Counted from the first letter of the stretch, positions 3,277 through 27,912 are shown. The stretch: 64,000 nt of DNA from an uncultured Methanolobus sp. (GCA_963675495.1 OY776215.1:2336001-2400000); one strand, 5' to 3'. Notes: a model not told the origin generated them from the sequence alone. Translations and numbers: made by a program.

Positions 3277-3742
3277 GTTCAGCACAATGACAATACCAAT
3301 GCTTGCCTATGAAGTCTTCTTGAAATGACATTATTTGAGCACAAGGTACTGCATTTGACTGTAAAATTAATAATCAGACTATAAAAATTATTTGTTGGAA
3401 TAGTGAATATTTCTATTCAATGACCTTTTTAACCCAAGTTTGAGAGTTTTCACTCTTTGATGGAGACAATGTCTTCTCTTTCAACCCAAAGTTTCCATTT
3501 TTTGTCCGGAAAATCTATTTGACAGTTTAAACAATTTAGTACAAATTACTACGATTTGACCCATTTTTGCTCTATAAGCAGTGTATTTTTCGCATCAAAG
3601 TTGGCATAAATGTACTTTTTTGTCTGAACATCCTGAATATAATATTCACAGATTCTTTTCAATTTTACTTTTTTAAAACCACATTAATTTATTGATTTTT
3701 GAGATACTTACTGCAACTTTAGTTCTATTGAAAATCTGCAAG

Positions 3743-3760
3743 TGCGTAATATTAATATGT
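3743..3760 (+). promoter_or_regulatory. BRE/TATA promoter of the host tRNA-Leu gene
   Basis: TGCGTAATATTAATATGT begins 48 nt upstream of the tRNA 5' end; same motif and spacing at 3882. Confidence 0.65.
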
Positions 3761-3790
3761 AAAGTATATGTTTACAACATGTTCTTTTGT

Positions 3791-3833
3791 GCGGGGGTTG
3801 CCCAGCCTGGCCAAAGGCGCAGGGCTTAGGACC
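3791..3833 (+). pseudogene. 5' half of host tRNA-Leu(UAG), disrupted by integration (contains attL)
   Basis: GCGGGGGTTGCCCAGCCTGGCCAAAGGCGCAGGGCTTAGGACC then non-tRNA sequence; joins 18637-18678 into a complete 85-nt cloverleaf. Confidence 0.93.
3821..3833 (+). repeat. attL core (13-bp direct repeat)
   Basis: AGGGCTTAGGACC, identical to 18624-18636; spans the anticodon loop. Confidence 0.9.
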
Positions 3834-3881
3834 ATATTCATAGGGCTTCATAGTATTTTCATCTAAAAATAGACTTGTGAA

Positions 3882-3899
3882 TGCGCAATATTAATATGT
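3882..3899 (+). promoter_or_regulatory. BRE/TATA promoter of the element-borne tRNA-Leu
   Basis: TGCGCAATATTAATATGT, 17/18 identical to 3743-3760 and at the same 48-nt distance from the tRNA. Confidence 0.7.
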
Positions 3900-3929
3900 G
3901 AACAATATCTTTAATGATTATTCTTTTAT

Positions 3930-4014
3930 GCGAGGGTTGCCCAGCCAGGTCAAAGGCGATGGGCTTAGGACCCATTATCGTAGGATTTCGTGTGTTCGAA
4001 TCACACCCCTCGCA
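3930..4014 (+). tRNA. tRNA-Leu (anticodon UAG), intact, element-encoded
   Basis: Acceptor GCGAGGG/CCCTCGC+A; anticodon arm ATGGG-CTTAGGA-CCCAT; variable arm ATC-GTAG-GAT; T arm GTGTG-TTCGAAT-CACAC; 85 nt. Confidence 0.96.
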
Positions 4015-4066
4015 CTTGTTTTTAGGGATATAGGTAACGTAGCACTTGTTTTTTGGGATATAGGTA
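4012..4066 (+). repeat. Two copies of a 25-bp direct repeat (period 30) overlapping the tRNA 3' end
   Basis: GCACTTGTTTTTAGGGATATAGGTA (4012-4036) and GCACTTGTTTTTTGGGATATAGGTA (4042-4066), 24/25 identical. Confidence 0.85.
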
Positions 4067-4091
4067 TCCTGAAAAACAGATACTCAGGATT

Positions 4092-4988
4092 TTACAATGT
4101 TAATTGTTTAATTGCTTCGTTTAATTTAGCAATTTGATCTAATTGATCAAAAATTCCTCCTTCCTGTAAGAATTTTAGAAGAAGGTAACAATAAAATCCA
4201 TAAAGATTGGACAAAATATCTCTGATAGCGTCCATCTCATAAACCTTATTTCCAAAAATTAATTCTTTTGTGTCACTATCATAGTAATAATCAGAATGGG
4301 CAATTTTATTTCTAATAAAAGAGTTTTGAACAATATCACAGTTCCATCCATTCAAGAACTCTTGTGTGTTAAAATAATTAATTAATTCACCTCTGGAAAT
4401 TGTCATCCCTTTCATTTTTGTTTTTCGATATGTTTTACAGAATTTCTTTGATTTTTCATCTTGCCTTCTTTGTTTGTAAGCTATTTTCACTGTAATATCT
4501 GTCAAAAAGAGGATTGTTAATTCATAAATCTGCACATATGTCGTTAATACCTGATTTAATCTGAATTCAATAGAAAAATTTTCATGATTTATCTTCTCCA
4601 TATCACTTGCAATTTGCTGCAAATTCCATACTTTAGGAAAATGTGACCATAAATCATTACCAAGTCCTTTTCCTTTTGTTTCTTTATAGAGTTGAGTTAT
4701 TAATCTATCAATAAAATCTATGCTTTGTGCGTCTAGTTTTTCACTCTGTGAAAGCAAGTCTTGCAAAAAACCTACAAGTTGGTCATGAGTGCTTGACATT
4801 TGGTAACAAAAATCTTCCAGATTATTGGGATATTTTGTTTCAAATTCCTCGTTAACTAATTGCATAAATCCAGTTGGAATTTTAGTATTCAATTCGGATT
4901 CGATATTGTAAAAACGTCTATTAATCTCATCCTTAGCTTTTGGTTTAAAGTTTTTAAAGACATTTGGATCAAGAGTCATACTTCCCAT
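4092..4988 (-). CDS. Hypothetical helical protein with C-terminal HEPN-like RxxxxH motif (putative RNase)
   Basis: 298-aa AT-rich ORF; FIRNKIAHSDY motif preceded by the helical YVQIYEL segment; lies in defence cargo. Confidence 0.65.
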   Translation of the reverse strand: MGSMTLDPNVFKNFKPKAKDEINRRFYNIESELNTKIPTGFMQLVNEEFETKYPNNLEDFCYQMSSTHDQLVGFLQDLLSQSEKLDAQSIDFIDRLITQLYKETKGKGLGNDLWSHFPKVWNLQQIASDMEKINHENFSIEFRLNQVLTTYVQIYELTILFLTDITVKIAYKQRRQDEKSKKFCKTYRKTKMKGMTISRGELINYFNTQEFLNGWNCDIVQNSFIRNKIAHSDYYYDSDTKELIFGNKVYEMDAIRDILSNLYGFYCYLLLKFLQEGGIFDQLDQIAKLNEAIKQLTL

Positions 4989-5112
4989 TCACCTTATGTT
5001 TGGTTTAGAAATACTATTCGTTAAGCAAGATTTCATTACATGTAGTATTTATTTATACTTATAAATAGAATATGTTATAAAGTTCGTCTACTATTACTTT
5101 TGAGGATTCACA

Positions 5113-7953
5113 ATGCTTGATCTCAACGAATTCCAGACAAGGAAACAAAAAATCGATGTGCTTCTCAAAGAGCATGGATGGAACGTTTCTGACAGGTCAC
5201 AAGTTATTGTTGAGGTTGATACAAAACAATCTGATTTTAAAAAACAGCTCTACAAACAGGTTAATGAAACCCTGAAGAATGATTTAGAGAGCAAATATGT
5301 AGATTATCTCTTACTTGATAGTCTGGGCAATCCTATTGCTGTCATTGAAGCCAAGAGGACATCAAAAGACCCTATTGTTGGGCAAAAGCAAGCTGAGCAA
5401 TATGCTGATGACATTAAGGCTCAGACCGGAAAGGATGTTTTCATTTATCTTTCCAATGGATATGAAATATGGTTCTGGGATAGGGAACGTTATCCTGTAA
5501 GACAGGTCAAAGGATTCCACACTCAAAAAGACCTTGAAAGAATGGATTACCAGATACAGAGCGGCAAGATAGACCATGATATCGATGTTAATACGGATAT
5601 TGTTGACCGTGCAAAAAGCATTGAGGTTACAAAGAGAGTTGTGGAACATATCCGCAAAGGACATAGAAAAGCTCTTGTTGTTATGGCTACTGGCACAGGA
5701 AAGACCCGTGTTGCAATGGCTATCATTGACCAGCTCATGCGTGAGGGTCGTGCTCAGAAAATCTTGTTTTTAGCTGATCGTAGGGAACTTAGAAGACAGG
5801 CTTACGATAAGGGATTTATGAAATTCTTCCCGGATGAATCCAAGGAGAGAATTCTTTCAGGTAATTATGATCCAAATAAAAGACTGTATGTTTCCACCAT
5901 CCAGACATTTCAGGAGATCTACAGCCAGAAGGATAAGGATGGAAGATACAGAATATCACCGGGAGAGTTCGACCTTATATTTTCGGATGAGGCTCACAGA
6001 TCCATTTATTCCAAGTGGAAAGGAATATTCACCTATCTTGATGCAATCCAAATTGGATTGACTGCAACTCCGGCTGATATGGTTGATAGAGATACCTTCA
6101 GGTTCTTTGAGTGTGATGATGATTCTCCAACCGCTCTTTATTCTTATGAGGATGCAGTCAAAGATGGAGTTCTCTGCGATTTCAGAAAGAATGTTTCAGG
6201 TGCAAGGACACATTTCCAGATGAATGGCCTTAGGCCTGATGATCTTACCGAAAGTGAGCGTGAAGAACTGCTCAATAAAGGTATTGACCCTGATACTATT
6301 GATTTTGAAGGTACGGATCTTGAGAAGAAGGTTGCTTTGAAGGGAACATCTGAAGCGATTGTCCGGGAATTTATGGATTATTGCCTTACTGATCAATCGG
6401 GAACTCTGCCAGCTAAGACTATTTTCTTTGCTATATCTAAACTCCATGCAAAGAGACTCTGGGAAGCTTTTGAAAGGTTGTATCCAGAATATAAAGGCCA
6501 GCTTGCAAAGATGATCACCTCTGAGGATTCAAGGGCTTCACAGTTGATAGATGATTTCAAGACTAAATCATTCCCAAGGGTTGCAATCTCCATTGACATG
6601 ATGGATACTGGCATCGATGTTCCAGAGGTATGCAATCTGGTGTTTGCAAAGCCTGTATTCTCGAAGATCAAGTTCTGGCAGATGCTTGGGAGAGGCACAA
6701 GGGCTGATGGTGCATGTGGGTTTAGGGATTGGTTGCCAAATGGTGAAAAGGAATACTTCAAGGTTTTTGATTTCTGGAACAATTTTGAGTACTGGGACAT
6801 GAACCCGGAAGGTGTGAAGAACGAGCCAACTGAGGCTATCACCAATCGTATATTCCTTTTCAAGCTCAAACAAATGAACGAGTTGATGAGTCGTAGTAAT
6901 TATGAGCTTGTGGATCAGTTGAAGGGGAGCATTATCGAAGATATCAGAACCTTACCTCAGGATTCAGTGAGTATCAAAGAGTATCTTCAAGATGTGGAAA
7001 AGGCATTGTCACCAAAGCTATGGGATAATGTAGGACTCGATCCTCTTGCTTTCCTCCAGAAGAAGATCATGCCACTGATGAAGTTCAAACCTGATGTGAA
7101 TCTGAAGGAAGCCAGCTTTACGCTGATGTGTGAGAAACTTGCTTTTGCAGTGCTTCAAAACAATACTCATGAGATAGAACGCCTGAAGAAGTCCATTGCT
7201 GAAATGGTGGATCATCTTCCAAGGACTCTGGATAAAGTGTGCGATAAAGAGGTGTTCCTGGATGAGATTCTATCCAATGCGTTCTGGAGTGGTGTGGGTT
7301 TTGAGGATGCTAAAAGGATGGTGGATGAAGTTGCACCTCTTATGCCCTATATGTCCAGAGAAGCAAGAGAAACAATTGTTATTGATATGAGTGATACCAT
7401 TGCAGAGAGGAAACAATGGACTATCAAGGATGATGAAGCCGAGTATGTGACCACATACAGAGCGAAGGTGGAAGACTGGATAAAGGAACTTGCAGAAACG
7501 CATCCTGTTATCCGCAAAATAAAGAATGATGGGATACTGACCGAAAGCGACCTCCAGCAGCTTGAGAACACGCTTTTTAATTCAGAACTTACCCTGAATG
7601 AGTCAAAGTTAAAGCAGATCTACCACAGGCAGAACACAAGCCTTGTGGAACTGATAAGAAACATACTCGGACTCTATGAGTTCCCATCTCCCGAAGACAC
7701 AATCAAAGATGCTTTCCAGACCTTTGTCATCGAGAACAACAAACACTACACAGCCGACCAGCTCAATTTTATACGCACTCTCCAGACTGTTTTCCTGAGA
7801 AAGAAACACATTGAATTCTCAACTCTCTGGAATGCCCCCTTCACTAATTTTGGCACAACCGCACCCATGCCCATGTTCTCTCAAGAAGAGTTAAATGCCT
7901 TTGTCAACATCTGCAACGGAGTAGAAAGAGAGATTTTTGGTTCAGAGGCATAA
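5113..7953 (+). CDS. hsdR: Type I restriction enzyme R subunit (EcoAI/EcoEI-like)
   Basis: YVDYLL...VIEAK nuclease motif, MATGTGKT, DEAH, GLTATP, QMLGRGTR, EcoEI-type C-terminus. Confidence 0.95.
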   Translation: MLDLNEFQTRKQKIDVLLKEHGWNVSDRSQVIVEVDTKQSDFKKQLYKQVNETLKNDLESKYVDYLLLDSLGNPIAVIEAKRTSKDPIVGQKQAEQYADDIKAQTGKDVFIYLSNGYEIWFWDRERYPVRQVKGFHTQKDLERMDYQIQSGKIDHDIDVNTDIVDRAKSIEVTKRVVEHIRKGHRKALVVMATGTGKTRVAMAIIDQLMREGRAQKILFLADRRELRRQAYDKGFMKFFPDESKERILSGNYDPNKRLYVSTIQTFQEIYSQKDKDGRYRISPGEFDLIFSDEAHRSIYSKWKGIFTYLDAIQIGLTATPADMVDRDTFRFFECDDDSPTALYSYEDAVKDGVLCDFRKNVSGARTHFQMNGLRPDDLTESEREELLNKGIDPDTIDFEGTDLEKKVALKGTSEAIVREFMDYCLTDQSGTLPAKTIFFAISKLHAKRLWEAFERLYPEYKGQLAKMITSEDSRASQLIDDFKTKSFPRVAISIDMMDTGIDVPEVCNLVFAKPVFSKIKFWQMLGRGTRADGACGFRDWLPNGEKEYFKVFDFWNNFEYWDMNPEGVKNEPTEAITNRIFLFKLKQMNELMSRSNYELVDQLKGSIIEDIRTLPQDSVSIKEYLQDVEKALSPKLWDNVGLDPLAFLQKKIMPLMKFKPDVNLKEASFTLMCEKLAFAVLQNNTHEIERLKKSIAEMVDHLPRTLDKVCDKEVFLDEILSNAFWSGVGFEDAKRMVDEVAPLMPYMSREARETIVIDMSDTIAERKQWTIKDDEAEYVTTYRAKVEDWIKELAETHPVIRKIKNDGILTESDLQQLENTLFNSELTLNESKLKQIYHRQNTSLVELIRNILGLYEFPSPEDTIKDAFQTFVIENNKHYTADQLNFIRTLQTVFLRKKHIEFSTLWNAPFTNFGTTAPMPMFSQEELNAFVNICNGVEREIFGSEA

Positions 7954-7956
7954 CGG

Positions 7957-9138
7957 ATGAAAAATGAGTTACCAGATGGGTGGAAGTTAGCAAAATTAAA
8001 AGACATTACTGAATGTTTAGATAATAAGCGAGTCCCGTTGAACGGTGAGGAAAGACTAAAAATTCAGGGAAATGTTCCTTATTACGGTGCTAATGGACAA
8101 TTAGATAACATCAATCAGTATATTTTTGACGAAGAATTGTTACTTGTTGCCGAAGATGGCGGTTCATGGGGGAAAAAACAAATCTGTGCTTATATCATAC
8201 ATGGAAAATCATGGGTAAACAACCATGCTCATGTGCTCAGGATGAAAAAAGATGTTGAGATTTCATTCTTAATGCACTGCTTAAATGAAGCCGATTTAAA
8301 TAAGTACATTACGGGAACAACAAGGGGAAAGCTCAATAGAGCGAATATGGACAAAATAGAAATTCCTCTCCCATCCCTCGAAACCCAACAGAAGATTATC
8401 ACCATCCTTGAAAAAGCCGAAGAGACTAAAAAACAGCGGGCACAGGCTTATTATTTGTCACAGCAACTCCTGCAAAGTGTGTTTTTGGAAATGTTTGGTG
8501 ATCCTGTGAGGAATCCGATGGGGTGGGAAGTTAGGAAGTTGGGAGAATTATCAACAAAAATACTAAGTGGATCTACCCCAAAAGGCGGAGAACAAGTTTA
8601 CGTAAAAGAAGGAATCACTTTTTTTAGAAGCCAAAATGTTTGGAAAAATAGAATTGAATTTAGTGATATAGCATTTATTGATGAAGCGACCCATAATAAA
8701 ATGAAAAAAAGCAGTTTAAAAAATAAAGATATTTTAGTTACTAAAACAGGAAGAATAAATACCGAGAATAGTAGTTTAGGAAGAGCAGCACTATTCTTAG
8801 GAGAAAATAACAGTGCAAATATTAACGGACATGTTTATTTGATACGATTACAGGAAAATAATATACATAAATTTATTTTATTTATTCTAACAACAAATGC
8901 ATATAGAGACTATATTAGAAGTGTATGTGTTGGAGGAATTGATAAAAGACAGATAAATAAACACCATTTAGAAGAATTTCCAATTATTTACCCTCCCCTC
9001 CCCCTTCAAGAAAAATTTGCTGAAATCGTTGAACAAATTGAAAAAACAAAGCAATTCCAACAACAAGCATCCCAAGAACTCGATAATCTCTTCAACACAC
9101 TTATGCAAAAAGCCTTCAATGGAGAATTAGTATCATGA
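7957..9138 (+). CDS. hsdS: Type I R-M specificity subunit
   Basis: LPDGW start, two TRDs, IPLPSLETQQKI / PPLPLQEKFAEIV conserved helices, EMFGDP, LMQKAFNGEL end. Confidence 0.95.
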   Translation: MKNELPDGWKLAKLKDITECLDNKRVPLNGEERLKIQGNVPYYGANGQLDNINQYIFDEELLLVAEDGGSWGKKQICAYIIHGKSWVNNHAHVLRMKKDVEISFLMHCLNEADLNKYITGTTRGKLNRANMDKIEIPLPSLETQQKIITILEKAEETKKQRAQAYYLSQQLLQSVFLEMFGDPVRNPMGWEVRKLGELSTKILSGSTPKGGEQVYVKEGITFFRSQNVWKNRIEFSDIAFIDEATHNKMKKSSLKNKDILVTKTGRINTENSSLGRAALFLGENNSANINGHVYLIRLQENNIHKFILFILTTNAYRDYIRSVCVGGIDKRQINKHHLEEFPIIYPPLPLQEKFAEIVEQIEKTKQFQQQASQELDNLFNTLMQKAFNGELVS

Positions 9139-10640
9139 GACTCGCACCTGAAATTAAATCAAAGATAGATCTTCTCTGGGATAGGTTCTGGAGTGGTGGT
9201 CTGTCAAATCCTTTACAGTCCATAGAGCAGATGTCTTACATCATATTCATGAAAAGGCTTGAGGATATGGATGTTATGGAGCAGAGGCGTGCTAATTCTA
9301 TGGGGAAGGAGTATAAGTCCATCTTTGAAGGCAACGAAGAGTGCAGGTGGTCTGTATGGAAGCACAAGTCCGCTGAGGATATGCTAAAGCATGTAAGGGA
9401 TGTTGTTTTTCCTTTCATAAAGAATATTCATGACGGAGAGAAGACACTATTCTCACAGCACATGAAAGATGCTGTATTCATGATCCCAAAGCCTACGCTT
9501 TTGCAGGAAGCTGTGAGCATCATCGATGAACTCAATATAGCTGCTCAATCAACAGATGTACAGGGAGATCTTTACGAATACCTGTTAAGCCAGCTAGCTA
9601 CAGCAGGCAAGAACGGACAATTCAGAACTCCAAGGCACATAATCAGAATGATGGTGGAGCTTGTTGATCCCGATATCAATGACAGGATTTGTGATCCTGC
9701 ATGTGGTACAGGTGGTTTCCTGTTCACAGCTCACAAACATATTCTCAGAAAATACACCTCTCCTGATTTGATCGAGCAGGATAAAGAAGGTGACTATCAC
9801 AATCTGATAGGCGACAATATCACAGAACAAGAACACTGGGATAAACTTCATAATGACACATTCTATGGCTTTGACTTTGACTCAACAATGGTGAGGATCG
9901 GACTCATGAACATGGTGCTTCATGGTATCAAATATCCTCATATTGAGCTTGTAGATACCCTTTCAACTCTTTACACTGAAGAAGACCGCTATAATGTGAT
10001 CCTCGCAAATCCTCCATTCAAGGGCAGTATAGACAAAGACGATATCAACGATAAATTGAAGCTTGGAACTAAAAAGACCGAGTTGTTATTTGTTGAGAAC
10101 ATAATCCGCCTGCTTGAGATTGGTGGGAAATGTGGTGTCATTGTTCCTGATGGCGTACTCTTTGGAAGTTCCAACGCACACAAGAACCTGCGTAAGATGC
10201 TGCTTGAGGATTGCCAGCTTGAAGGTATTGTTTCCATGCCATCAGGTGTATTCAAGCCCTATGCAGGAGTGTCAACTGCTGTTATGATATTCACCAAGGG
10301 AGGAAACACGGAAAATGTCTGGTTCTACGACATGGAAGCAGACGGTTACTCTCTGGATGACAAGAGAACTCCAATTGATATGCGGGGCGATATCCCTGAC
10401 ATAATCGAGAGTTATAAGAACAGGAAAACAGGGAATCCTCAAGACCGGAAGGGTAAATGCTTCTATGTTCCATTTGATGAGATTAAAGATAATAACTATG
10501 ATCTTTCAATTTCTCGATATAAGGAAATCGAATATGAAGAGATTGAGTATGAGAAGCCAGAAGTCATTATTCAGAAGATTGATGAATTAGAGGATCAGAT
10601 TAAGGCTAATGTGGCTGAACTGAAAGAGATGTTGAAGTAG
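9135..10640 (+). CDS. hsdM: Type I R-M N6-adenine methyltransferase subunit
   Basis: GQFRTPRHI, DPACGTGGF, NPPF, VPDGVLFG; ATGA overlap with hsdS. Confidence 0.96.
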   Translation: MRLAPEIKSKIDLLWDRFWSGGLSNPLQSIEQMSYIIFMKRLEDMDVMEQRRANSMGKEYKSIFEGNEECRWSVWKHKSAEDMLKHVRDVVFPFIKNIHDGEKTLFSQHMKDAVFMIPKPTLLQEAVSIIDELNIAAQSTDVQGDLYEYLLSQLATAGKNGQFRTPRHIIRMMVELVDPDINDRICDPACGTGGFLFTAHKHILRKYTSPDLIEQDKEGDYHNLIGDNITEQEHWDKLHNDTFYGFDFDSTMVRIGLMNMVLHGIKYPHIELVDTLSTLYTEEDRYNVILANPPFKGSIDKDDINDKLKLGTKKTELLFVENIIRLLEIGGKCGVIVPDGVLFGSSNAHKNLRKMLLEDCQLEGIVSMPSGVFKPYAGVSTAVMIFTKGGNTENVWFYDMEADGYSLDDKRTPIDMRGDIPDIIESYKNRKTGNPQDRKGKCFYVPFDEIKDNNYDLSISRYKEIEYEEIEYEKPEVIIQKIDELEDQIKANVAELKEMLK

Positions 10641-10814
10641 GATGTATAATTCTGCTTTTTAATTTCAATACTTTTCTTTTGAGTTATTTTTTCTTTATTC
10701 TCATCTCAATAACAATGATATAAAAATATATCAAAAAGCATTATCATTAGCACATTAATCACTCCAAACACTCATAAAAGGAGTAAAGTAATAAGTATCC
10801 TTAGGATAGGGACT

Positions 10815-11135
10815 TTTTGGCGGTGCCGTCCTCGTTCCCTTCGCATTACTGCGGGCGGAGCACCGCCTTGCATTGGTATTTGACGCACTGTCGTCCTGTG
10901 CTCCGGTAGGTGCTCGGACCACAGCGCTCTAATAAAGGCTGGTGCACCGATGCTCACAAGCTCACATCCGTGCATGGTTGATGTTTTCAAAAAAGCGATG
11001 CTGTTTTAGTAGTACGTTCAAACGCCACTGAGGCTTAATGATGCGTTGGAAACGCAGGATGTAGTTGACGCTCATGCGCCACTTAGGCTGTTCTTGGGAT
11101 ACCCTCCGGGACGGGTGTGAGTAGGAGGAGCATCA
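10815..11135. other. GC-rich non-coding block with several stem-loops: candidate single-/double-strand replication origin or structured RNA
   Basis: Inverted repeats GGCGGTGC/GCACCGCC (10819-10867), 10896-10924, 10943-10974 and TGCGTT/AACGCA (11042-11056) within AT-rich flanks. Confidence 0.45.
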
Positions 11136-11159
11136 TGTAAAAAGAGTATAAATTTTTTA

Positions 11160-13856
11160 TTAGACGAGACCTAACATAGATCCTAATCCAACAATTTTTG
11201 CAATTTTATGTGTCCATTCCCAACTGCTTACTTTTTCAATATTATCCCCTACCTCTACTGCAGTATCAAATGCATTCTTGAATTTAGTAGCAATTCTGGA
11301 AACGTTTGGTTGATCTTTTTCAGATTCTTCAATTGCTGTGTTGATATTACCATTTACAACGCTTAATTCATTATCAGGGAGACCTAATTTAGCAATTTCA
11401 TTTTTAAATATCATTAGGTTTTCATGGAGTTCTTTTCTATCATTTATTGATATATTGGTACTTTTATCAATTGTAATAGAACTATTTTCCCCACTGATAA
11501 TAGCATTTCCTCCAATGTTATATTGATTTACAGGTTGATATGGATGATTTCCCGCCGTTTTTCTTTCTCTTTCATTTTCAACCCCATGTAGTAATTGTTT
11601 TACACTATAGTTCTTATTTAATTGCCACACAAAGTATTCATCTTTGCTAGCTTTTTCGAAAGCAACCAACTCTTTATAGTCAATAGTGATTATGGGATTG
11701 TCTGGTAACGGTACTAACTCTTTGACAGGCATATTCTCAAAACCCGCATTAATTTCTCTAAAAGATTTCCGTATAATCGAAAGATATTCTTTCTTTGATT
11801 CTCCGTCAACATAGATGTATATTTTTTTGTCTTCCTTGTCCACTTTTATGATAGACATAGAATTAATTGATTTATCTTCTAGTACTACTCCATTTCTCCA
11901 TTGGAGTCCTTTTTTAATGTCAGTATGATTTCTCACAATAAATCTTGGCATTATGGAATTAGGTAAAAAATTGTATTCAATAATAAATTTCAATGAGTTT
12001 GGATTATCTAATTTGAAATCAGGTTGTTGGATTTCCAATAGGTCAGGAATGAGTATGGTATTTTTATTAATAAAGTAACACAACTCAAATTTTTCCATTA
12101 GATCAATGATAAATTTATGTGTATTGCGTGGATATTGGTAATCAATTTCGTTTTTTTTCTTTAGAATTTCAGTTAATAACTTAGTTTTTAACATCCCTTT
12201 CTTGTTTTGTAACTTATCAGATGTTATGATTTTGTAAACTGCTTCTGTGACCCACTTTGGATTCAATACGTGAGTGTCCAGTAAATTGTCGTCAGAAAAG
12301 TGTAATACAACTCCTAAGTCGTTAAGAAAATCAACAAGTGTTTCTTGTGATTCTTCTTTTGTAATTCCTTCAGATTCACATATTTCTTCATACTTTTCAA
12401 ATTTTATGTAGTGATCCGTTGATTTCTCTAATTGTGTTTTTACTTTGAACCAACTTTTTGGCCAAACCGTTTTGAGATGGTCAATGCTTGTTAGTTGCTC
12501 AACCAAGTTTTCTTTGAAATCCTCGATACCTTTTCCGCTTTTACAAGATAATCGATAAAATCCTTTTATTGATGGATATTTTTCTTGTAAGAATTTTCTG
12601 TCTACTTCAAACATCGGGTTTTCATCTACTTTATTAAGAACAATTAATACAGGGGAATTTCCGCCAAAGCTTTGAACGTGTTTAAGCCAGTATTCCGTTT
12701 TTTCTTCTTTCCTTCCGTCTAAAACTAAAATATAAAGACTTCTTTTTGACAAAAAGAATTGATGGGTTGCATGCATTATTTCTTGGCCGCCAAAATCCCA
12801 AAAATTGACTTTTATTTCTTTTTTTCTCTCCTTTATGTCCCACTCATTAATTTTTATACCATGTGTTTGTAATTCATGTGGGTCAAATTCATTTTTGATG
12901 AGCCTTTTTGACAAAGAAGTTTTACCTGAGCCTCCATCCCCAATTAACAACACTTTTACTTCATTCAGCGCTTGTGTTTCTCCTTCCAGCGATTTAAAAT
13001 ATTCTTTGACTGCTTCTTTACCCTTTTTTATGATATCTATTGGAGGGGTTTCAATAGGGTTGCCTCTTACAAAAATTCCATAAGGTGTATATTCGTCGTC
13101 CAATAGTATTTCTAAATTTAGTTCTGTAATCGCTGGTGGTAGGGCTGTTAGCTGATTACCGGTCAGGTCAAGTGTAGTAAGGTTCTTTAGTTCTGCAATC
13201 GCCGGAGGCAGTGATGTGAACCAGTTACGGAACAGGTTAAGTTCAGTAAGGTTCCTTAGTTTCGTGATATTCGGCGGCAGGGCTGTGAGCCGGTTCTTGG
13301 ACAGGTAAAGTCTAGTAAGGTTCTTTAGTTCTGCGATCTCCGGTGGTAGTGATGTTAGCTGGTTGCTGGCTAGGTCAAGTGTAGTAAGGTTCTTTAGTTT
13401 TATGATTTCCGGTGGCAGTGATGTGACCCAGTTATGGAACAGGGTGAGTTCAGTAAGGTTCTTTAGTTCTGCGATCTCCGGTGGCAGTGATGTTAGCTGG
13501 TTGCTGGCCAAGTTAAGTTTAGTAATGTTCTTTAGTTTTATGATTTCAGACGGCAGTGATATGAACCAGTTATCGTCCAGGTTAAGTTCAGTAAGGTTCT
13601 TTAGTTCTGCAATCTCAGGTGGCAGGGCTGCAAGCCGGTTATCGGACAGGTTAAGTTTAGTAATGTTCTTTAGTTCTGCAATCTCAGGTGACAGGGCTGT
13701 GAGCCGGTTACTGGCCAGGTTAAGTTCAGTAAGGTTCTTTAGTTTTGCAATCTCCGGCGGCAGTGATGTTAGCTGGTTATCGGACAGGTCAAGTGAAAAG
13801 TTATTATTTCTAGCGGCTTCTTTGATAAGTTGCAAAACAGTTTCTTTCATACCCAC
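11160..13856 (-). CDS. Roco protein: LRR + Roc GTPase + COR + C-terminal helical domain
   Basis: 10 x 23-aa LRRs; GDGGSGKTS P-loop; THGI; WDFGGQE; NKVD; COR motifs LNDLGVVLHF and LNPKWVTEAVY. Confidence 0.93.
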   Translation of the reverse strand: MGMKETVLQLIKEAARNNNFSLDLSDNQLTSLPPEIAKLKNLTELNLASNRLTALSPEIAELKNITKLNLSDNRLAALPPEIAELKNLTELNLDDNWFISLPSEIIKLKNITKLNLASNQLTSLPPEIAELKNLTELTLFHNWVTSLPPEIIKLKNLTTLDLASNQLTSLPPEIAELKNLTRLYLSKNRLTALPPNITKLRNLTELNLFRNWFTSLPPAIAELKNLTTLDLTGNQLTALPPAITELNLEILLDDEYTPYGIFVRGNPIETPPIDIIKKGKEAVKEYFKSLEGETQALNEVKVLLIGDGGSGKTSLSKRLIKNEFDPHELQTHGIKINEWDIKERKKEIKVNFWDFGGQEIMHATHQFFLSKRSLYILVLDGRKEEKTEYWLKHVQSFGGNSPVLIVLNKVDENPMFEVDRKFLQEKYPSIKGFYRLSCKSGKGIEDFKENLVEQLTSIDHLKTVWPKSWFKVKTQLEKSTDHYIKFEKYEEICESEGITKEESQETLVDFLNDLGVVLHFSDDNLLDTHVLNPKWVTEAVYKIITSDKLQNKKGMLKTKLLTEILKKKNEIDYQYPRNTHKFIIDLMEKFELCYFINKNTILIPDLLEIQQPDFKLDNPNSLKFIIEYNFLPNSIMPRFIVRNHTDIKKGLQWRNGVVLEDKSINSMSIIKVDKEDKKIYIYVDGESKKEYLSIIRKSFREINAGFENMPVKELVPLPDNPIITIDYKELVAFEKASKDEYFVWQLNKNYSVKQLLHGVENERERKTAGNHPYQPVNQYNIGGNAIISGENSSITIDKSTNISINDRKELHENLMIFKNEIAKLGLPDNELSVVNGNINTAIEESEKDQPNVSRIATKFKNAFDTAVEVGDNIEKVSSWEWTHKIAKIVGLGSMLGLV
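13104..13793 (-). repeat. Ten 69-bp tandem repeats encoding the LRR array
   Basis: Recurring DNA units such as TTCTTTAGTTCTGC and GGCAGTGATGTTAGCTGGTT at 69-bp period. Confidence 0.9.
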
Positions 13857-14166
13857 ACGCCTATTTTCTTAATTTATATGATTGGGATTTAGCGACTCAA
13901 ATATCGAATAATTATAATTTATAATGTGACTAAACCTTCAAAGTCATTTCTATTTAAGCTTTTCATTTTTGTAGGGTTATGCCACTTTTAAGAACCACAT
14001 TTTGATTATTTGTATGGTTTTAAAATGAAGTATGGAGAGTAATAGTTACATTTCCTTAAACAAAAAAAGAGTGGAAGTCAGAACAGCAGTTGCTTCCTAG
14101 AACACTTTTGTTAGAAGTGGTTAAAATGTCGATGTATTCACAATTGAATTAGCCACCTCCTGAAAC

Positions 14167-16056
14167 TTACTTTGTTATGGGTAAATTCTCCCTTAGTTTC
14201 ACATAACCATTCATAATATCCTCTAAATTACCCCCGTGTTTTATCCTGTATCTTCCTCTTTTCATTCTCTCGAAGTCATTGGATTTGCTTACATTCTTAT
14301 CAAAGAATCTGTTACTCCATGGGTGGAAGAACTTTCGGGTCACAAATCCCTTTGTTCGAAGTTCGTTTACCAGATTGTTAAAGAAGGAAACATCCTTGAA
14401 AGATTCGTGCAGGTCTGTATATTTTAGGTATGCAACAAGATAATGCTTTTTATCTTCATCGTTTGGGTAGGAGCTCTTTTTTGTAAATTGGTGATAGCCA
14501 TGCTGGTATTTTTCTTTATCAAAGCCTGATGTCCTTCTGGTGAAATGGAAAAGAAGTTTTGCATACAGGTAGCGTTTCATCTGCTCAGGATCGGTGAAGA
14601 ACTGGGTGTGAATGGGTTTACGGCCTGTTCCAATATCGGCAAAGAGCTTTAGTTCCTTTCCCAGGACAATTTCATTTCTCAGGTTCTTCTTTGTCTTTTT
14701 GTACATTTTGTGTGAGAACCTTGCAGTATTGGGTTCTATGTCTGACATGTATTTTGTGACAAGCAGAGGGGTGGTGTCGTGCAGGCTGGAATCCATAATA
14801 CCACAGCAATGGTAGTTGTCCATCACTTCTTTTAGGTATTCAAGTGGGTCTAGTGGAAGTGCTGTGTTCCAGCAGATCTCTATCTGGCTGATGTTAAATT
14901 CCATAGGTGCTTTCCTGATCTCGTCCTGCTCAAAGCCTTCTCGTTCAAGCATTTTGCGGTATGCTTTTTTGGCTTTGTGTTTCAGTTCTTGGAAGGCTTG
15001 CTGTTCGTATTTATGATACTCTTTTTCATACCCTATTGGAATGAAGTTGTTCTCGTCCAGCAGTTCATTATTGAATGCTTCCTCTACTTCTGGAATGTCT
15101 TCCTTCATCTTTTTGTAGACTATCCTTTGCATATTCGCATAGATAAAAAGTGATACAGGAGCACCTTTTGGAGGATTGTTTCTAAAACGATAGGTTATTC
15201 CCTCCGTTTCCCATAGGTAGGAATCTTTGTAGGACTTGGGTATTGATGTCAGGCTATAGTCTGGAAGTATAGAACGATGTTTCATGAAATCATATTCTTC
15301 ATCCAGATTAGTAGGCAAAAATTGTTCAACATAATCTTCTATGTCTTCAATATCGTAGCCTTTATTGGATAGTTCTTGTTTATGGCGCATCAAACGCTCA
15401 ACAAGGACTTCCTTTTGGAACCTGGGGGCTGTAGTTTTTATGACCTTCTTAACGTCGCCTTTGAAAGTGAGGTAATCCTTGGAGTAAACCTGTAGGCTTA
15501 TCCTGTCGACCATCAATGTGGGGTATTCGATATGTTCTGAGTCCTGTTTGTAAAAGTCGTCCATCAGAAGAGTATCCCATTCAAGGTATTGATCTCTGAC
15601 AAACTCCCTTTTAAAGTTTGAGAATTTTGAATTTTCGTTCTTTAAGAATCTGTCAATCCGTATTCTATAACCATTTTCCCTATAGTAATCACATATCTTA
15701 TCGTTGAACTCACTTAATCTGTCAATGGATCCAGGATTGGAGTAATAGTGGTCAATGCTTTCTTTTTCAGTGAGTCCAAGATGCCTTCTTACGAGTTCAC
15801 AGAAAGGAGTAGGTCCATCTTTAAGGATATAGTCAAATAAACAGATGTCTTCTTGAAAGCGGTCAAAAAGGTCAATGTCATATTTGCTCTGTTTGTAATC
15901 TTTGATTGCTGATTCAATTGACCTCCAGAAAGAGGTTGGTAGTTCATAAGACTTAACATCAGCAATTGGGATCTTACTTTCATCTCTAAAAAGCTCATCA
16001 ATAATCTTTTTGTTTGCCTTCTTGTCAACTGTGAAGTTGGATGATGTGTTCATCAT
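14167..16056 (-). CDS. Putative replication initiator, Rep_trans-like rolling-circle type
   Basis: 629 aa; VDRISL, NISQIEICWN and KMYKK...LRNEI resemble the order of Rep_trans motifs (hD, ShhDhxhD, hYxK, RxE); backbone position in the element. Confidence 0.45.
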   Translation of the reverse strand: MMNTSSNFTVDKKANKKIIDELFRDESKIPIADVKSYELPTSFWRSIESAIKDYKQSKYDIDLFDRFQEDICLFDYILKDGPTPFCELVRRHLGLTEKESIDHYYSNPGSIDRLSEFNDKICDYYRENGYRIRIDRFLKNENSKFSNFKREFVRDQYLEWDTLLMDDFYKQDSEHIEYPTLMVDRISLQVYSKDYLTFKGDVKKVIKTTAPRFQKEVLVERLMRHKQELSNKGYDIEDIEDYVEQFLPTNLDEEYDFMKHRSILPDYSLTSIPKSYKDSYLWETEGITYRFRNNPPKGAPVSLFIYANMQRIVYKKMKEDIPEVEEAFNNELLDENNFIPIGYEKEYHKYEQQAFQELKHKAKKAYRKMLEREGFEQDEIRKAPMEFNISQIEICWNTALPLDPLEYLKEVMDNYHCCGIMDSSLHDTTPLLVTKYMSDIEPNTARFSHKMYKKTKKNLRNEIVLGKELKLFADIGTGRKPIHTQFFTDPEQMKRYLYAKLLFHFTRRTSGFDKEKYQHGYHQFTKKSSYPNDEDKKHYLVAYLKYTDLHESFKDVSFFNNLVNELRTKGFVTRKFFHPWSNRFFDKNVSKSNDFERMKRGRYRIKHGGNLEDIMNGYVKLRENLPITK

Positions 16057-16250
16057 ACCAACCCCCTTGATCTTTTGAGTTCCTCAAGGGTGATTTTTCC
16101 ACATCTAACAGGTTCCAGAAGTTCATCCAATTTTTCATTTGCCAGCTCATCTATCCTGAACATCATTTGGAAGGACTGTGGCATATGTTCAATGATCTGT
16201 TCGTCTACTTTTTCAAGAGAAGGTTTAATACCTGATACATTACTATTCAT
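16053..16250 (-). CDS. Small leader protein (65 aa) translationally coupled to the putative rep
   Basis: GAGGTG SD at 16263-16258, 7 nt before ATG 16250; its TGA overlaps the rep ATG (ATGA). Confidence 0.7.
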   Translation of the reverse strand: MNSNVSGIKPSLEKVDEQIIEHMPQSFQMMFRIDELANEKLDELLEPVRCGKITLEELKRSRGLV

Positions 16251-16254
16251 AAAT

Positions 16255-16338
16255 GTACACCTCAAGGTGTGCGCTTATGCATCGGTTCAAGATCTTGCAG
16301 GATTTGTCGGACCGGTGCACATTCTGCTTTTTTGTTTA
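16255..16338 (+). ncRNA. Candidate antisense (countertranscript) RNA against the rep-operon leader
   Basis: TTTAATA box at 16224-16230; long hairpin 16278-16319 with G-U pairs only on the + strand; T-tract at about 16329-16338; overlaps the leader-ORF SD. Confidence 0.4.
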
Positions 16339-16433
16339 ATTGTCTGTACTGTTTACTCGTTGTTGAGTTTCAGAGGGAATTGTTCCTCAGATACAAGAAT
16401 GGAGTACTGTTATAAATAGTGTCATAAGTGGTA

Positions 16434-16488
16434 GGCAATCGGTAACAAATCCCTACTAGTGGGCAATGGAAATCAAATCCCTACTAGT
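16434..16488. promoter_or_regulatory. 28-bp-period tandem repeat in a divergent promoter region (operator or iteron candidate)
   Basis: GGCAAT-N6-CAAATCCCTACTAGT twice (16434-16460, 16462-16488); 15-bp core identical. Confidence 0.6.
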
Positions 16489-16526
16489 TAGATGTCTTCA
16501 AATAGTTTGTATTAAAATCATCTAAT

Positions 16527-17450
16527 GTGATTAATATGGATTCAGATTATACCTCAGATGACTATGCTAAAGAATGTCTCCTTAATAGAACAGATGAAAA
16601 GATCATCATGTATCTCATTAGCAATAACAATGAGCCATCATATGCTGCAGAAATTGCGCGTGAGTTTGAAGCTGATAAGTCATGGTTAAAAGACAAATGT
16701 GAAAAGTTGAAAGATCAGGGTATTTTGTTATCAAAAGACAAATGTCCTAATCGATCTAGATATACGGAGCACTACTACTTGGGTGATATCGTAGATGTTT
16801 TAAATTATTTATATGAGCATCAATCTGAAAACACCCTGCTTGATCATGTCATGACAAAGGAATATTACAGGGGACAAATTGATCACTTGATATCCAATTT
16901 TGAAAATAAACGGGTATCTTCAGGCTACAAGGCCTTTTCAGCAAATGAAAAAGAAGCGATACAACTATGCCTTAAATATTCCAGCAAGGCTCTATATGTT
17001 GTACTGGGAATCTATGATTGTGAGAAACTTTCTGGATATCTTGCTTATGAATACAAAACTTTGGCCAACCACATAAAGGAAGGTCGGTTTATATCGGTGT
17101 CCGCAATAGCTGCCGCCATAGTCAAAACAAAGATAGTTGACGAGGATAAAAAAGTTCAACTATTGGATGAAATTCATGATACCGCTTTAAATTCTTTGAG
17201 TTCAAGAGTTGAGCATTTTGGGAATTTACTTGATAAAAGTAAAGTACCTATCTTGTTTGAACAATTCTTGTTGGATAATCCCTTGATAGAGTTTTTAACA
17301 GCAGAAGAAGACCGTGAACAGCTTAGATTGGATATTAAAAGAGTTAATTTCTTAGTTAGTGACATCATAGATCCATCACTAAATCCTATTTTAGCGAAAG
17401 ATGAAAAAGATAGGTATGCACATTTACCTTCCCTTAATCTGAAACGCTAA
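16527..17450 (+). CDS. Winged helix-turn-helix domain protein (putative element regulator)
   Basis: DEKIIMYL...SYAAEIAREFEADKSWLKDKCEKLKDQGIL wHTH pattern; divergent from rep. Confidence 0.7.
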   Translation: MINMDSDYTSDDYAKECLLNRTDEKIIMYLISNNNEPSYAAEIAREFEADKSWLKDKCEKLKDQGILLSKDKCPNRSRYTEHYYLGDIVDVLNYLYEHQSENTLLDHVMTKEYYRGQIDHLISNFENKRVSSGYKAFSANEKEAIQLCLKYSSKALYVVLGIYDCEKLSGYLAYEYKTLANHIKEGRFISVSAIAAAIVKTKIVDEDKKVQLLDEIHDTALNSLSSRVEHFGNLLDKSKVPILFEQFLLDNPLIEFLTAEEDREQLRLDIKRVNFLVSDIIDPSLNPILAKDEKDRYAHLPSLNLKR

Positions 17451-18573
17451 TCTTCTTCAATACTTCATTTATCCGAGCTTCCACCAATTCATCAACCTTT
17501 GATTGCATAAGTTGGGTGAGCTTCTCATCCGTCGTCTTTATTTCAGTATCCATCTTAATTGCAGTTTCCATGTCAAGGACCATTGAACAACTACTACAAT
17601 ACTTGGAGTCATGTGGGTTGAGGCTTTTACAACGTGGACATTCGATTGGTTTGAGTTCAAGTTTCTCTTTTTTGACCTCATCCTCTATAATGCCGTAAGA
17701 GGCCAGTAATTTCTTTTCAACATCCTCTCCTGATAGGTGGATGTATGTAGCGGGCATCTTGGAATCAGCTTCCCAGCCTGCAATGATCCTCAGTTCTGTT
17801 TCCTTGAAACCACGCTTGACAAGGTCGGTGAGCTTCCCATGCCTAAATGCATGTGGGTGTATGTTCTTCTTGACTCCTGCATCATTTGCTACTGTCTTTA
17901 GCATGTTCTGAACTGTACGGATATCAAGTTTTTTTGGTTCTTTTCCGTTATTTCTGAATGTGACAAATAAAGGAGCATTGGGGTCATCTTTGTTAGGGTG
18001 CTGATTGATCCATGCTTGAAGGTCAGGAACTGCTTCAATGAGTCTTATTCTTCTCATTCCTGTCTTACCTTCTACAACTATCACAGCTCCATATTTGTCT
18101 ATCTCTACATGTCCTAGGTTCAGGTTGAGTATTTCGTTAGCTCTTGCGGCACTATCCCAGAAGGTCATGACAATAGCTCTATCACGTTGAGTCTTGCAGG
18201 CGGGTACTAGTTTCTTCACATCCGCCGGCACAATTATTTCCTTAGTGGGCAAGTGGTTCTTAGGACTGCGGGTCTTGATATCTTCGAAAAAAGCATTATC
18301 TGGATTTAACCACTTGAAGAAAAGCCTCAGGTCAACTATGTCGTTGTGGACTGTTTTTGGCTTATTGTTTTTTCTTCTATGCAGAATATAGCTTTCTATA
18401 TCTTTTTTTGTGATTTTATTAATGTTTTTGTTATTGTGGTATTTTAGGAAGGTGTAAACTTTCCATAGTTTTGTGTTGATAGTTGTTTCTTTGAAGTTGT
18501 TGAGACCAAGGCTCCTGGCATAGTCATCCAGTATCTCTTTGTTCTCTCCTTCAGTTTTGGGTGCATATTTCAT
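17434..18573 (-). CDS. Tyrosine recombinase/integrase with C-terminal zinc ribbon
   Basis: SAARANE (R), GKTG (K), HPHAFRH, AGW, catalytic Y in ATYIH; CPRC...CSSC; starts about 50 bp inside attR. Confidence 0.95.
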   Translation of the reverse strand: MKYAPKTEGENKEILDDYARSLGLNNFKETTINTKLWKVYTFLKYHNNKNINKITKKDIESYILHRRKNNKPKTVHNDIVDLRLFFKWLNPDNAFFEDIKTRSPKNHLPTKEIIVPADVKKLVPACKTQRDRAIVMTFWDSAARANEILNLNLGHVEIDKYGAVIVVEGKTGMRRIRLIEAVPDLQAWINQHPNKDDPNAPLFVTFRNNGKEPKKLDIRTVQNMLKTVANDAGVKKNIHPHAFRHGKLTDLVKRGFKETELRIIAGWEADSKMPATYIHLSGEDVEKKLLASYGIIEDEVKKEKLELKPIECPRCKSLNPHDSKYCSSCSMVLDMETAIKMDTEIKTTDEKLTQLMQSKVDELVEARINEVLKKISVSD

Positions 18574-18623
18574 ACTATGTAGTATGCTTTATACAGTTAT
18601 AAATATTACGTGACCCTGTAAGT

Positions 18624-18636
18624 AGGGCTTAGGACC
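18624..18636 (+). repeat. attR core (13-bp direct repeat)
   Basis: AGGGCTTAGGACC, identical to 3821-3833. Confidence 0.9.
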
Positions 18637-18678
18637 CTGTCTCGTAGGAGTTCGTGCGTTCGAATCGCACCTCCCGCA
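18624..18678 (+). pseudogene. 3' half of host tRNA-Leu(UAG) (contains attR)
   Basis: AGGGCTTAGGACCCTG-TCTCGTAGGAGTTC-GTGCGTTCGAATCGCAC-CTCCCGCA; CTCCCGC pairs with GCGGGGG at 3791; upstream sequence lacks D-arm and acceptor strand. Confidence 0.93.
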
Positions 18679-18729
18679 TCATACTTTTCATTTTAGTAGT
18701 TCAATTCCATCTTTAGTTTCTATTCATTC

Positions 18730-22887: not shown

Positions 22888-23017
22888 TATAATATACTAC
22901 CATATAAGGAATTAATCAACTAATGTGCAAAGTAAAGAAATTCTCTAGTGAGAGTTCTTTCCTAAAAATTCCTTAAATGACTTCCAAAATGCATTAAACT
23001 TTTGTGTGAGATCAACA

Positions 23018-24492
<1,475 letters not shown>

Positions 24493-24596
24493 AAGCAAGA
24501 TGGACACAAAGTCCATCACCACTAACCGGTCAGAAATCGAAAAACTGTCAGATCCGAGAAAAATTACATGGATTCACTGTAAAAGGGGTCCAAGAG

Positions 24597-24796: not shown

Positions 24797-27711
<2,915 letters not shown>

Positions 27712-27887: not shown

Positions 27888-27912
27888 TTACCATTTACAA
27901 TTCATCATGAGA

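Follow-up and report, generated by a model that had tools for sequence, protein, structure and literature searches.

An integrative element of Methanolobus that splits a host tRNA-Leu(UAG) gene and appears to replace it with an intact tRNA of its own

The window analysed here is a stretch of 64,000 nucleotides from the genome of an uncultured Methanolobus sp. (GCA_963675495.1, OY776215.1:2336001-2400000), in which positions 3834-18636 are occupied by an integrated element that appears to have destroyed a leucine tRNA gene of its host and to have supplied the substitute. The two halves of a tRNA-Leu(UAG) gene lie at the borders of this element, and a complete tRNA-Leu with the same anticodon lies shortly inside its left end. 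An earlier note, made from the sequence of the window alone, had proposed a target that is split at a short core and not regenerated, with a complete tRNA of the same anticodon inside the left attachment site (attL), and all of its structural claims held. We put at roughly 0.8 the probability that the window element is a mobile element belonging to a family that spans the Methanosarcinaceae, with integration, replacement, self-protection and lock-in as outlined below. The principle is known from bacterial viruses; what is new is the archaeal setting, the consistency across an entire integrase clade and four isoacceptors, and the systematic changes in the anticodon stem, along with a cargo composed mostly of defence genes without detected virion genes and the signs of permanent gene replacement.

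A tRNA gene divided between the two ends of the element

All coordinates are positions in the window unless a genome is named; G-numbers denote the genomes compared (G000 is the source genome) and L-numbers denote loci. The features on which the argument depends are as follows.

3743-3790, plus strand: native upstream region, in which an AT-rich, promoter-like box is conserved; 43-48 bp align at 95-96% identity with the sequence upstream of the intact tRNA in G023 and G003
3791-3833, plus strand: 5' half of the host tRNA-Leu(UAG), ending in the attL core, 100% identical to nucleotides 1-43 of the relatives' intact tRNA
3821-3833, plus strand: attL core copy, made up of the 7-nt anticodon loop with 4 bases of the stem on its 5' side and 2 on its 3' side
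3834-3929, plus strand: left end of the element, comprising the P' arm, in which AGGGCTT recurs 8 bp beyond the core, and the promoter-like box that precedes the element tRNA
3930-4014, plus strand: intact tRNA-Leu(UAG), the putative replacement copy (ARAGORN; Rfam RF00005, 49.4 bits, gathering score 29; end called at 4014 or 4015)
18574-18623, plus strand: right end of the element, with the P arm and ACCCTG 6 bp before the core, 94-97% identical in G049, G050 and G051 and 75% in G010
18624-18636, plus strand: core copy of the right attachment site (attR), an exact repeat of the attL core
18637-18678, plus strand: 3' half of the host tRNA-Leu(UAG), 100% identical to the relatives' intact tRNA

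The 5' half comprises nucleotides 1-43 and the 3' half nucleotides 44-85 of a class II tRNA. The core, AGGGCTTAGGACC, ends the 5' half and recurs directly before the 3' half; the bases that flank the two copies differ, so the repeat is exactly 13 bp, and the distance from core to core is 14,803 bp. Joined by a script, the halves yield an 85-nt cloverleaf that ARAGORN calls as tRNA-Leu(tag) and that is 100% identical to the intact tRNA-Leu(UAG) of the related species G003, G002 and G019. Among the 29 genomes of the genus that were read, 14 have an intact Leu(UAG) gene identical to the joined halves and four more have one that differs by 1-3 bases. At the junctions themselves, neither ARAGORN nor Rfam calls a tRNA; with the Rfam tRNA model, the host type scores 43.8 bits, against 49.4 for the element copy. 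The earlier note had derived from the sequence both the reconstruction of an 85-nt tRNA-Leu(UAG) from these two pieces and the failure of a 13-bp shared core to restore it at either side, and the ARAGORN call, the identity to the relatives' gene and the blank junctions agree with it.

The surroundings point to the same conclusion on the chromosomal side. The right flank, which begins at 18679, matches the sequence that immediately follows the intact tRNA in G001 (82% identity over 1501 bp) and in G024 (77% over 1230 bp), and this conserved flank, together with the upstream box beside the intact tRNA of relatives, implies that unoccupied sites exist, of the kind that the earlier note had proposed to look for. 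Beyond the upstream box of about 48 bp, none of the 25 loci compared within the genus shares the left flank, so that there is no empty site in which both flanks match over a long distance. Searches of 11 regions upstream of 5' halves for further decayed halves or spacers found none.

Two explanations of the split gene that involve no replacement can be considered at this point. Unrelated tRNA-like pieces might have been brought together by mis-assembly, given that tRNA repeats do break short-read assemblies (one contig of G043 ends 7 nt past a 5' half). Nevertheless, Logan contigs from three runs of one sample, possibly the source data of the assembly itself, cover 3300-13343 and 13455-19200 without differences, and this bridging of both junctions makes mis-assembly, the artefact that the earlier note had wished to see checked, unlikely; the same junctions are also present in the complete single-contig genomes G049, G084, G087 and G102, and we consider the probability of an artefact practically negligible. 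From a fourth run, X4, which is very fragmented and of uneven depth, with a 370-nt contig over 3625-3994, no inference was drawn. None of the eleven sequencing runs listed is recorded as RNA. The second explanation is that the halves still function as a split tRNA gene whose products are joined in trans, as in Nanoarchaeum. Both halves are undecayed and 100% identical to the intact gene, which speaks for this, but a recent insertion explains their state equally well. Furthermore, the predicted duplex between the stretch that follows the 5' half and the one that precedes the 3' half, at -17.3 kcal/mol, is to be compared with a shuffle mean of -13.6 (sd 3.5) and is reached by 14% of 500 shuffles, the native upstream box is absent before the 3' half, and an intact gene is present, so that joining in trans is scarcely tenable.

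The G043 contig mentioned above (C29:15959-16008) carries an identical 5' half and core, and is probably another occupied site broken by assembly. A single contig joint, 3820 to 18639, was considered as a restored chromosomal site (attB) and rejected: the 15 other letters between the two positions are those of an unrelated tRNA-Leu(CAG) gene.

The intact tRNA inside the left end

The intact tRNA begins 96 bp inside the left end (the earlier note had given about 100 bp), within the repeat-bounded segment, and is preceded by its own promoter-like box, similar to that before the host 5' half. It matches the reconstructed host tRNA at 72 of 85 positions, as had been claimed, and the position-by-position comparison likewise reproduces the reported partition of the 13 differences: five double changes that keep a base pair (4/81, 30/46, 31/45, 48/57 and 64/74), one change at position 79 that converts G-U to G-C, and two changes in the D loop, at positions 18 and 21. 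All 23 scored pairs are kept in both tRNAs despite these differences, an outcome that 13 random substitutions reach in 0.06% of 200,000 trials.

The closest relatives of this tRNA are found in other elements. Copies in G052, G053 and G054, all with elements of the Methanococcoides type, are 96-98% identical to it, and the split targets in these genomes are of the host type. The native Leu(UAG) of two Methanosarcina-type genomes, unsplit and located beside tRNA-Gly(UCC), is identical at 81 of 85 positions, and the element tRNA may have been captured from a lineage whose gene is no target. The window copy and its integrase are both closest to Methanococcoides-type elements, and the split halves are of the type native to the genus. 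Spacer and tRNA stay with the integrase while the host flanks change: the left arm, compared over 92-96 bp, retains 84-85% identity in the G010, G049 and G051 elements, whose host flanks differ, and 68-70% in three Methanococcoides-type elements. By these comparisons, the intact tRNA at 3930-4014 is assigned to the element and not to the host.

It could be argued that this tRNA is instead a host paralogue, one member of a tandem duplication in whose other member the island inserted by chance. Tandem tRNA-Leu(GAG) pairs do exist in the genus, and the upstream boxes of the two genes are alike. However, two intact Leu(UAG) genes in tandem are present in none of the 29 genomes read from the genus, an arrangement that, according to the earlier note, would have marked the copy as a paralogue; spacer and tRNA accompany the integrase in species and genera whose host flanks differ; the copy matches those of Methanococcoides-type elements at 96-98% and the type of its own genus at only 72 of 85 positions; and it sits within the repeat-bounded segment. 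A paralogue is thus very unlikely.

The other explanation to be weighed here is that of an ordinary island. Canonical tRNA islands carry the displaced part of the tRNA in the attachment site of the element (attP) and regenerate the gene at one junction. Under this explanation, the tRNA 3' part would have come in attP, the tRNA at 3930-4014 would be the regenerated chimera, and the piece at 3791-3833 would be an unrelated relic. The intact tRNA and the 3' half indeed share an imperfect direct repeat, 47 bp at 87%, which island finders would call attL and attR, and elements with tyrosine integrases in tRNA-Leu of Methanosarcina mazei have been described in this manner in the part of the source available to us (PMC4779613). 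Against this, the 3' half does not fit the 5' part of the tRNA at 3930-4014 (A at position 4 faces C at 81, and there are two mismatches in the anticodon stem); it is cognate with the 5' half, and the two together equal the intact gene of relatives. The exact repeat lies where the 5' half ends and where the 3' half begins, no 5' half is ever displaced in a canonical event, and the three-part layout recurs in 14 genomes. We therefore consider an ordinary island extremely unlikely.

A family of related elements in the Methanosarcinaceae

A profile of five integrases was run against 177 genomes of the family Methanosarcinaceae, and the integrase clade was found in 23 of them, at 26 loci in 7 of 16 genera. 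In 25 of these loci a tRNA-Leu 3' half adjoins the start of the integrase gene, beginning in the anticodon arm some 50-100 bp away; the targets are UAG (12 loci), CAG (6), UAA (6) and CAA (1). The full layout, that is, 5' half, spacer of about 50-140 bp, intact tRNA with the same anticodon, cargo, integrase and 3' half, is present on one contig in 14 of the 23 genomes, with elements of about 14.7 to 49 kb, so that the survey of homologous integrases suggested in the earlier note did recover the combination of split tRNA and same-anticodon cargo tRNA. In three further genomes the 5' half and the tRNA lie on a separate contig, and in three others contig ends block the reading of the far end. Among the closest cases, the integrases of G010, G049 and G051 are 80-89% identical to that of the window and show the same arrangement with a UAG tRNA and 20-42 kb of cargo; in G024, a 53%-identical integrase splits tRNA-Leu(CAG) likewise. 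More distant relatives of the integrase from other archaeal phyla, at 31-38% identity (L101-L104), have no recognisable tRNA half within 200 bp of the gene, and ARAGORN finds no tRNA in these loci of about 2-7 kb. With regard to detection, the tRNAs of L075 and L064 escaped Rfam when it was run with fast filters at the gathering threshold; a permissive run recovered that of L075.

A tree of the integrases unites all 12 enzymes that have a UAG target (support 100/99); within the other clade, a CAG target is found at two separate positions, and the window enzyme groups with those of two genomes of another genus (87/90). The CCCT(G/C)T motif of the right arm is kept in all 12 UAG-type elements. 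An all-against-all comparison of open reading frames (ORFs) shows that the integrase is the only one common to all elements; beyond the ORFs, they have the att arms and the tRNA in common. Two proteins of 629 and 307 aa on the integrase side are shared by the window element with those of G050 and G051.

The remaining cargo is variable and consists mostly of anti-virus defence genes; the window element has an LRR-Roc-COR GTPase together with a restriction-modification system of type I. Four related elements, in G010, G049, G050 and G051, encode all components of a type I-B CRISPR-Cas system (Cas8b-type TM1802, Cas7, Cas5, Cas3, Cas6b, Cas1, Cas2 and Cas4; loci L058, G051:C16, at about 10038-18479, and L064, at 8-1429). 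In G051 a CRISPR array of at least 20 repeats abuts the element tRNA, which makes this element a mobile CRISPR-Cas locus. The element of G053 encodes an SNF2-type helicase, a DUF499 protein, an Abi-alpha protein, a resolvase and a DUF927/Cch-type helicase. Judging from such gene contents, these elements would seem to be platforms, made of an integrase and a tRNA, that move mainly defence genes.

The anticodon stem

Why should the element tRNA differ so systematically from the gene that it accompanies? The 5' strand of the anticodon stem differs between split target and element tRNA in all 14 intact pairs compared (9 UAG, 4 CAG and 1 UAA). In all UAG pairs, the target has CAGGG/CCCTG and the copy ATGGG/CCCAT; the CAG pair of G024 has CTGGA in the target and CCAGA in the copy. 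In G049 and G051, four of the five differences between the two tRNAs are in the stem and the fifth is a single D-loop base, and in G024 all four differences are in the stem. The base next to GGG is A in both half-sites of the target and in the attP core, and T in the copy.

A tyrosine recombinase is expected to bind the stem strands that flank the 7-bp overlap (reviewed in PMC8371274; this and the other articles cited here by PMC number were available in part, and what we say of them is limited to those parts). A target-type stem in the copy would then be a second attachment site about 130 bp from attP, which would invite self-deletion, and the changed stem may keep the integrase off the element's own tRNA and leave an occupied cell without a target. 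Protection of the copy by its altered stem had been suggested in the earlier note; the difference that it noticed in one pair extends to 14 of 14, while the protection itself is what we infer from this pattern.

Decoding of CUA in the host

The source genome, a single contig of 2.87 Mb, has one Leu(tag) gene, that at 3930-4015, according to ARAGORN with and without intron search; the other leucine tRNA genes called have the anticodons taa, caa, cag and, in two genes, gag. Under standard wobble rules, none of these four anticodons reads CUA. The codon is the rarest of the leucine codons (2327 of 397,729 codons in 636 long ORFs of the genome). A second intact gene, which the earlier note had named as the finding that would remove the dependence on the element, was not found by ARAGORN, and there is strong reason to suppose that CUA decoding depends on the element tRNA.

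An alternative view is that the chief role of this tRNA is to meet the demand of the element's own genes for a rare codon, or to escape a defence that cuts tRNAs, with the replacement of the host gene as a side effect. CUA accounts for 12.6 per 1000 codons in the eight ORFs of the element and for 5.85 in the 636 long genome ORFs, and an anti-defence role has been raised by the authors who described a comparable phage system (PMC10865867). Neither role, however, would account for the fact that the tRNA always matches the anticodon of the destroyed gene, across four isoacceptors, that it occupies a fixed place next to the core, and that its anticodon loop is unchanged and only the stem differs; moreover, the cargo and hence the codon demand differ between elements. 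Although it is the least improbable of the alternatives weighed here, we consider it unlikely.

Proposed course of integration and points that weigh against it

The following scenario appears to accommodate these findings. Judging from the junctions, the tyrosine integrase would have recombined a short core in attP with the anticodon arm of the chromosomal tRNA-Leu(UAG), and because attP shares only 13 bp with the target, the gene was left as two dead halves at attL and attR. Once integrated, the element tRNA would take over the decoding of CUA; if the element were excised precisely at the cores, the host gene would be restored and the copy would leave with the element. The two compensated pairs of the anticodon stem would keep the element tRNA from serving as an attachment site, and the altered stem would also deprive a converted host, like an occupied one, of a target. 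Finally, as the relatives discussed below suggest, the unused 5' half might be lost, whereupon the element tRNA would become the resident gene.

Several observations weigh against this scenario or against parts of it. One of the 26 integrase loci, L147 (G091:C7:92068-93186), lacks a tRNA half, although this integrase may belong to a free or differently integrated copy. In G050 (C11; L073 and L093) and G136 (C1:1657900-1658600; L152), the integrase and a host-type 3' half are present, but there is no 5' half, and the native upstream sequence leads straight into an element-type tRNA; this is most simply explained by a recombination between 5' half and copy that deleted attL and fixed the element tRNA. 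G152 has a candidate tRNA for which no 5' half was detected. G002 departs from the pattern in that a tRNA with a target-type stem comes after a decayed 5' half and spacer, and no integrase of the clade was found there; in this relic (L062/L067, G002:C43, about 35594-35821), the 5' half is 88% identical with two changes in the anticodon loop, the spacer is 79% identical to the element type, and the tRNA is identical to the host type. The Logan contigs contain neither a circle junction nor a restored attB, but such contigs cannot show rare forms, so that this absence is silent on excision. All UAG elements share one stem and hence count as one event, to which roughly two to four more independent events can be added. 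CUA is 2.2 times as common in the ORFs of the element as in the genome, so that codon supply may add to the value of the tRNA. Lastly, the proposed dependence of the host is deduced from ARAGORN gene calls and wobble rules, not from genetics.

A broader proposition, to which we give somewhat less than an even chance, is that for this clade integration would be obligatory gene replacement: each event would destroy one tRNA-Leu gene and install an integrase-resistant allele, which would guard the element against self-recombination, block super-integration and tie viability to the tRNA of the island. Decay or deletion of the dead halves, of the kind seen in G050, G136 and G002, would then make the allele resident, such islands would drive the turnover of tRNA-Leu genes and the diversity of their anticodon stems in the Methanosarcinaceae, and many islands regarded as canonical may belong here.

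Relation to known systems

The precedent to which the earlier note had pointed, dependence on an isoacceptor encoded by an actinobacteriophage, is real. In the tRNA-dependent lysogeny of actinobacteriophages (Guerrero-Bustamante and Hatfull 2024, PMC10865867), the cores are 8-17 bp long and the tRNA is not rebuilt, lysogens need the cognate phage tRNA, as proven by genetics, and one of the phages, Gaia, targets tRNA-Leu; the same authors also point to a Lactobacillus prophage. The window element shares with this system a tyrosine integrase, an attB within a host tRNA gene, a core (here 13 bp) that is too short to restore the gene, and a cognate tRNA carried along. It differs in its archaeal host, in a cargo that is mostly defensive with no virion genes among the scanned ORFs, and in the fixed position of the tRNA, 50-140 bp from the core; the archaeal trait, moreover, extends through a clade and over four Leu isoacceptors with systematic compensated stem changes, and relics suggest that the element tRNA can become the resident gene. 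The phage system is established by genetics, whereas the archaeal one is known from sequence alone.

With canonical islands (the classes of Williams 2002; Islander, PMC4383910), the elements have in common the crossover in the anticodon loop with the stem as symmetric flank, and the position of the integrase gene beside a displaced 3' fragment. They differ from such islands in that neither junction of the window element is a tRNA and the intact tRNA is no chimera of the halves. A case of the ordinary type is available in the same genome for comparison: a 35%-identical integrase (862244-863251) belongs to an island of about 9.8 kb (G000:C1:853568-863475). The intact tRNA-Thr(CGU) gene occupies 853568-853639, and a 15/16-nt repeat of its 3' end is located about 210 bp from the integrase. 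In this island the integrase is beside attR, as in the window element, but the tRNA is preserved.

Closer to the present family are perhaps MGE1 and MGE2, elements with tyrosine integrases in tRNA-Leu of Methanosarcina mazei, which the available part of the article describes as ordinary 3'-distal insertions (Krupovic et al., 2016, PMC4779613). They share the methanosarcinacean host, the tRNA-Leu target and the tyrosine integrase, and are, by that account, unrelated to known archaeal viruses and plasmids. Since the long imperfect repeat between copy and 3' half makes elements of this clade look canonical, MGE1 and MGE2 may be members of the family.

Two other archaeal arrangements bear comparison. 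At the tRNA-Thr locus of Caldiarchaeum subterraneum, a 5' fragment lies upstream of an intact version with a recombinase-coding insert between them (Sugahara et al., 2012, PMC3293823); that insert, however, is transposon-like and of 1.8 kb, the intact gene differs by introns, and the part of the paper available to us describes no 3' half, short core or replacement logic. The SSV-type 'suicidal' integrases split their own gene upon integration and regenerate the tRNA, the SSV1 overlap being the anticodon loop (PMC8371274). The window element resembles these in having an archaeal integrase and a tRNA target, but its integrase gene is whole (379 aa) and it is the tRNA that is split. Our literature search found no description, in archaea, of an integrating element that leaves its tRNA target unrestored and carries a replacement for it; none of the papers with the phrase 'tRNA-dependent lysogeny' concerns archaea, among the titles listed.

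Integration of the 'destroy and replace' kind, first described in 2024 in a few bacterial viruses, is thus extended to Archaea and to elements with defence cargo, and it emerges as the rule for a whole integrase clade, with four tRNA-Leu isoacceptors and seven genera, and not as a scattered exception. A tRNA allele that resists use as an attachment site would offer a testable reason for the compensated stem changes. The findings further suggest that mobile elements can overwrite essential tRNA genes, which bears on the divergence of tRNAs between related species. In practical terms, island finders that look for a regenerated tRNA and a displaced fragment would place the left border wrongly and miss the dead 5' half. 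The module of integrase, short attP and tRNA could become a compact integration tool for methanogens, similar to the one that the phage authors proposed for mycobacteria (PMC10865867).

Integrase, cargo and neighbouring features

The genes of the window element, including the integrase, are listed below.

4092-4988, minus strand: 298-aa ORF, cargo; no Pfam, PADLOC or NCBIfam family, one weak PHROG without assigned function
5113-7953, plus strand: type I HsdR, cargo; Pfam ResIII, EcoEI_R_C and HSDR_N, PADLOC REase_I 3e-129
7957-9138, plus strand: type I HsdS, cargo; Pfam Methylase_S in two stretches
9135-10640, plus strand: type I HsdM, cargo; Pfam N6_Mtase 8.9e-66 and HsdM_N
11160-13856, minus strand: LRR-Roc-COR GTPase of 898 aa, cargo; Pfam LRR, Roc, COR-A and COR-B
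14167-16056, minus strand: 629-aa protein, integrase-side backbone, 78-79% identical to the protein at the same place in the elements of G050 and G051
16527-17450, plus strand: 307-aa protein, backbone, with weak matches to helix-turn-helix regulators; 74-75% identical in G050 and G051, PHROG transcriptional regulator E = 0.0011
17434-18573, minus strand: tyrosine integrase, 379 aa, intact; Pfam Phage_integrase 6.7e-18, Phage_int_SAM_4 and DZR, PHROG integrase 5e-29

The start codon of the integrase is 50 bp from the right-hand core, and orthologues at 53-89% identity adjoin the same kind of junction. Residues R132, K170, H241, R244, W267 and Y277 are invariant in the five integrases aligned; we take them to be the tyrosine recombinase catalytic set (R, K, H-x-x-R, H/W, Y). 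After the catalytic domain, at residues of about 312-329, there follows a zinc-ribbon-like CxxC...CxxC segment with a charged tail, an unusual C-terminal addition for a tyrosine integrase, in which the four cysteines are invariant in the five orthologues.

The genes for HsdR, HsdS and HsdM are adjacent at 5113-10640 and, as predicted from their domains, constitute a complete type I restriction-modification system. The LRR-Roc-COR GTPase beside it is unusually rich in CUA, with 25 among its 898 codons, or 25 of the 55 CUA codons of the element. The 298-, 629- and 307-aa ORFs and one of 70 aa have no usable family in Pfam, PHROGs (run on six of the eight ORFs of the window element), PADLOC or NCBIfam; the 298-aa ORF has no homologue in the other elements compared, and the 629-aa protein does not match the DUF927/Cch-type protein at the corresponding place in the G053 element.

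Families of capsid, portal, terminase or tail proteins were detected neither in the eight ORFs of the window element (with Pfam, and with PHROGs for six of them) nor in 20 ORFs of the G051 and G053 elements (with Pfam), and there was no conjugation family among the scanned ORFs of the window element. The earlier description of the element as archaeal and apparently non-viral is in line with this and with the tRNA-Pyl encoded by the genome and the nearest integrases, which come from Methanolobus, Methanococcoides and Methanosarcina records; as several ORFs are without assigned function, a novel virus or satellite is nonetheless conceivable.

Some further features were observed around the element and elsewhere in the genome. 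Just upstream of the split tRNA, at 3426-3633, lies a repeat of about 200 bp that recurs in the genome at 598887-599081 (79%), with a shorter 163-bp match at 1475263-1475425 (74%); many more occur in the genus, with at least 9 matches listed in G009 and 10 in G023, at 80-85% identity, so that a small mobile element of the non-autonomous kind may be involved. At G000:C1:1143232-1143477 there is a tandem pair of intact tRNA-Leu(GAG) genes, separated by about 160 bp, an arrangement that is conserved across the genus, with matching loci in most of its genomes, and unrelated to the element. Farther to the right in the window, a G+C-rich stretch (49-55%) at about 23000-28000, with tRNA-Ala(UGC) at 24597-24669 and tRNA-Cys(GCA) at 27816-27887, is probably an rRNA operon; the stretch begins some 4.3 kb beyond the 3' half. 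In G003, about 1 kb separates the intact tRNA-Leu from the start of the 16S gene.

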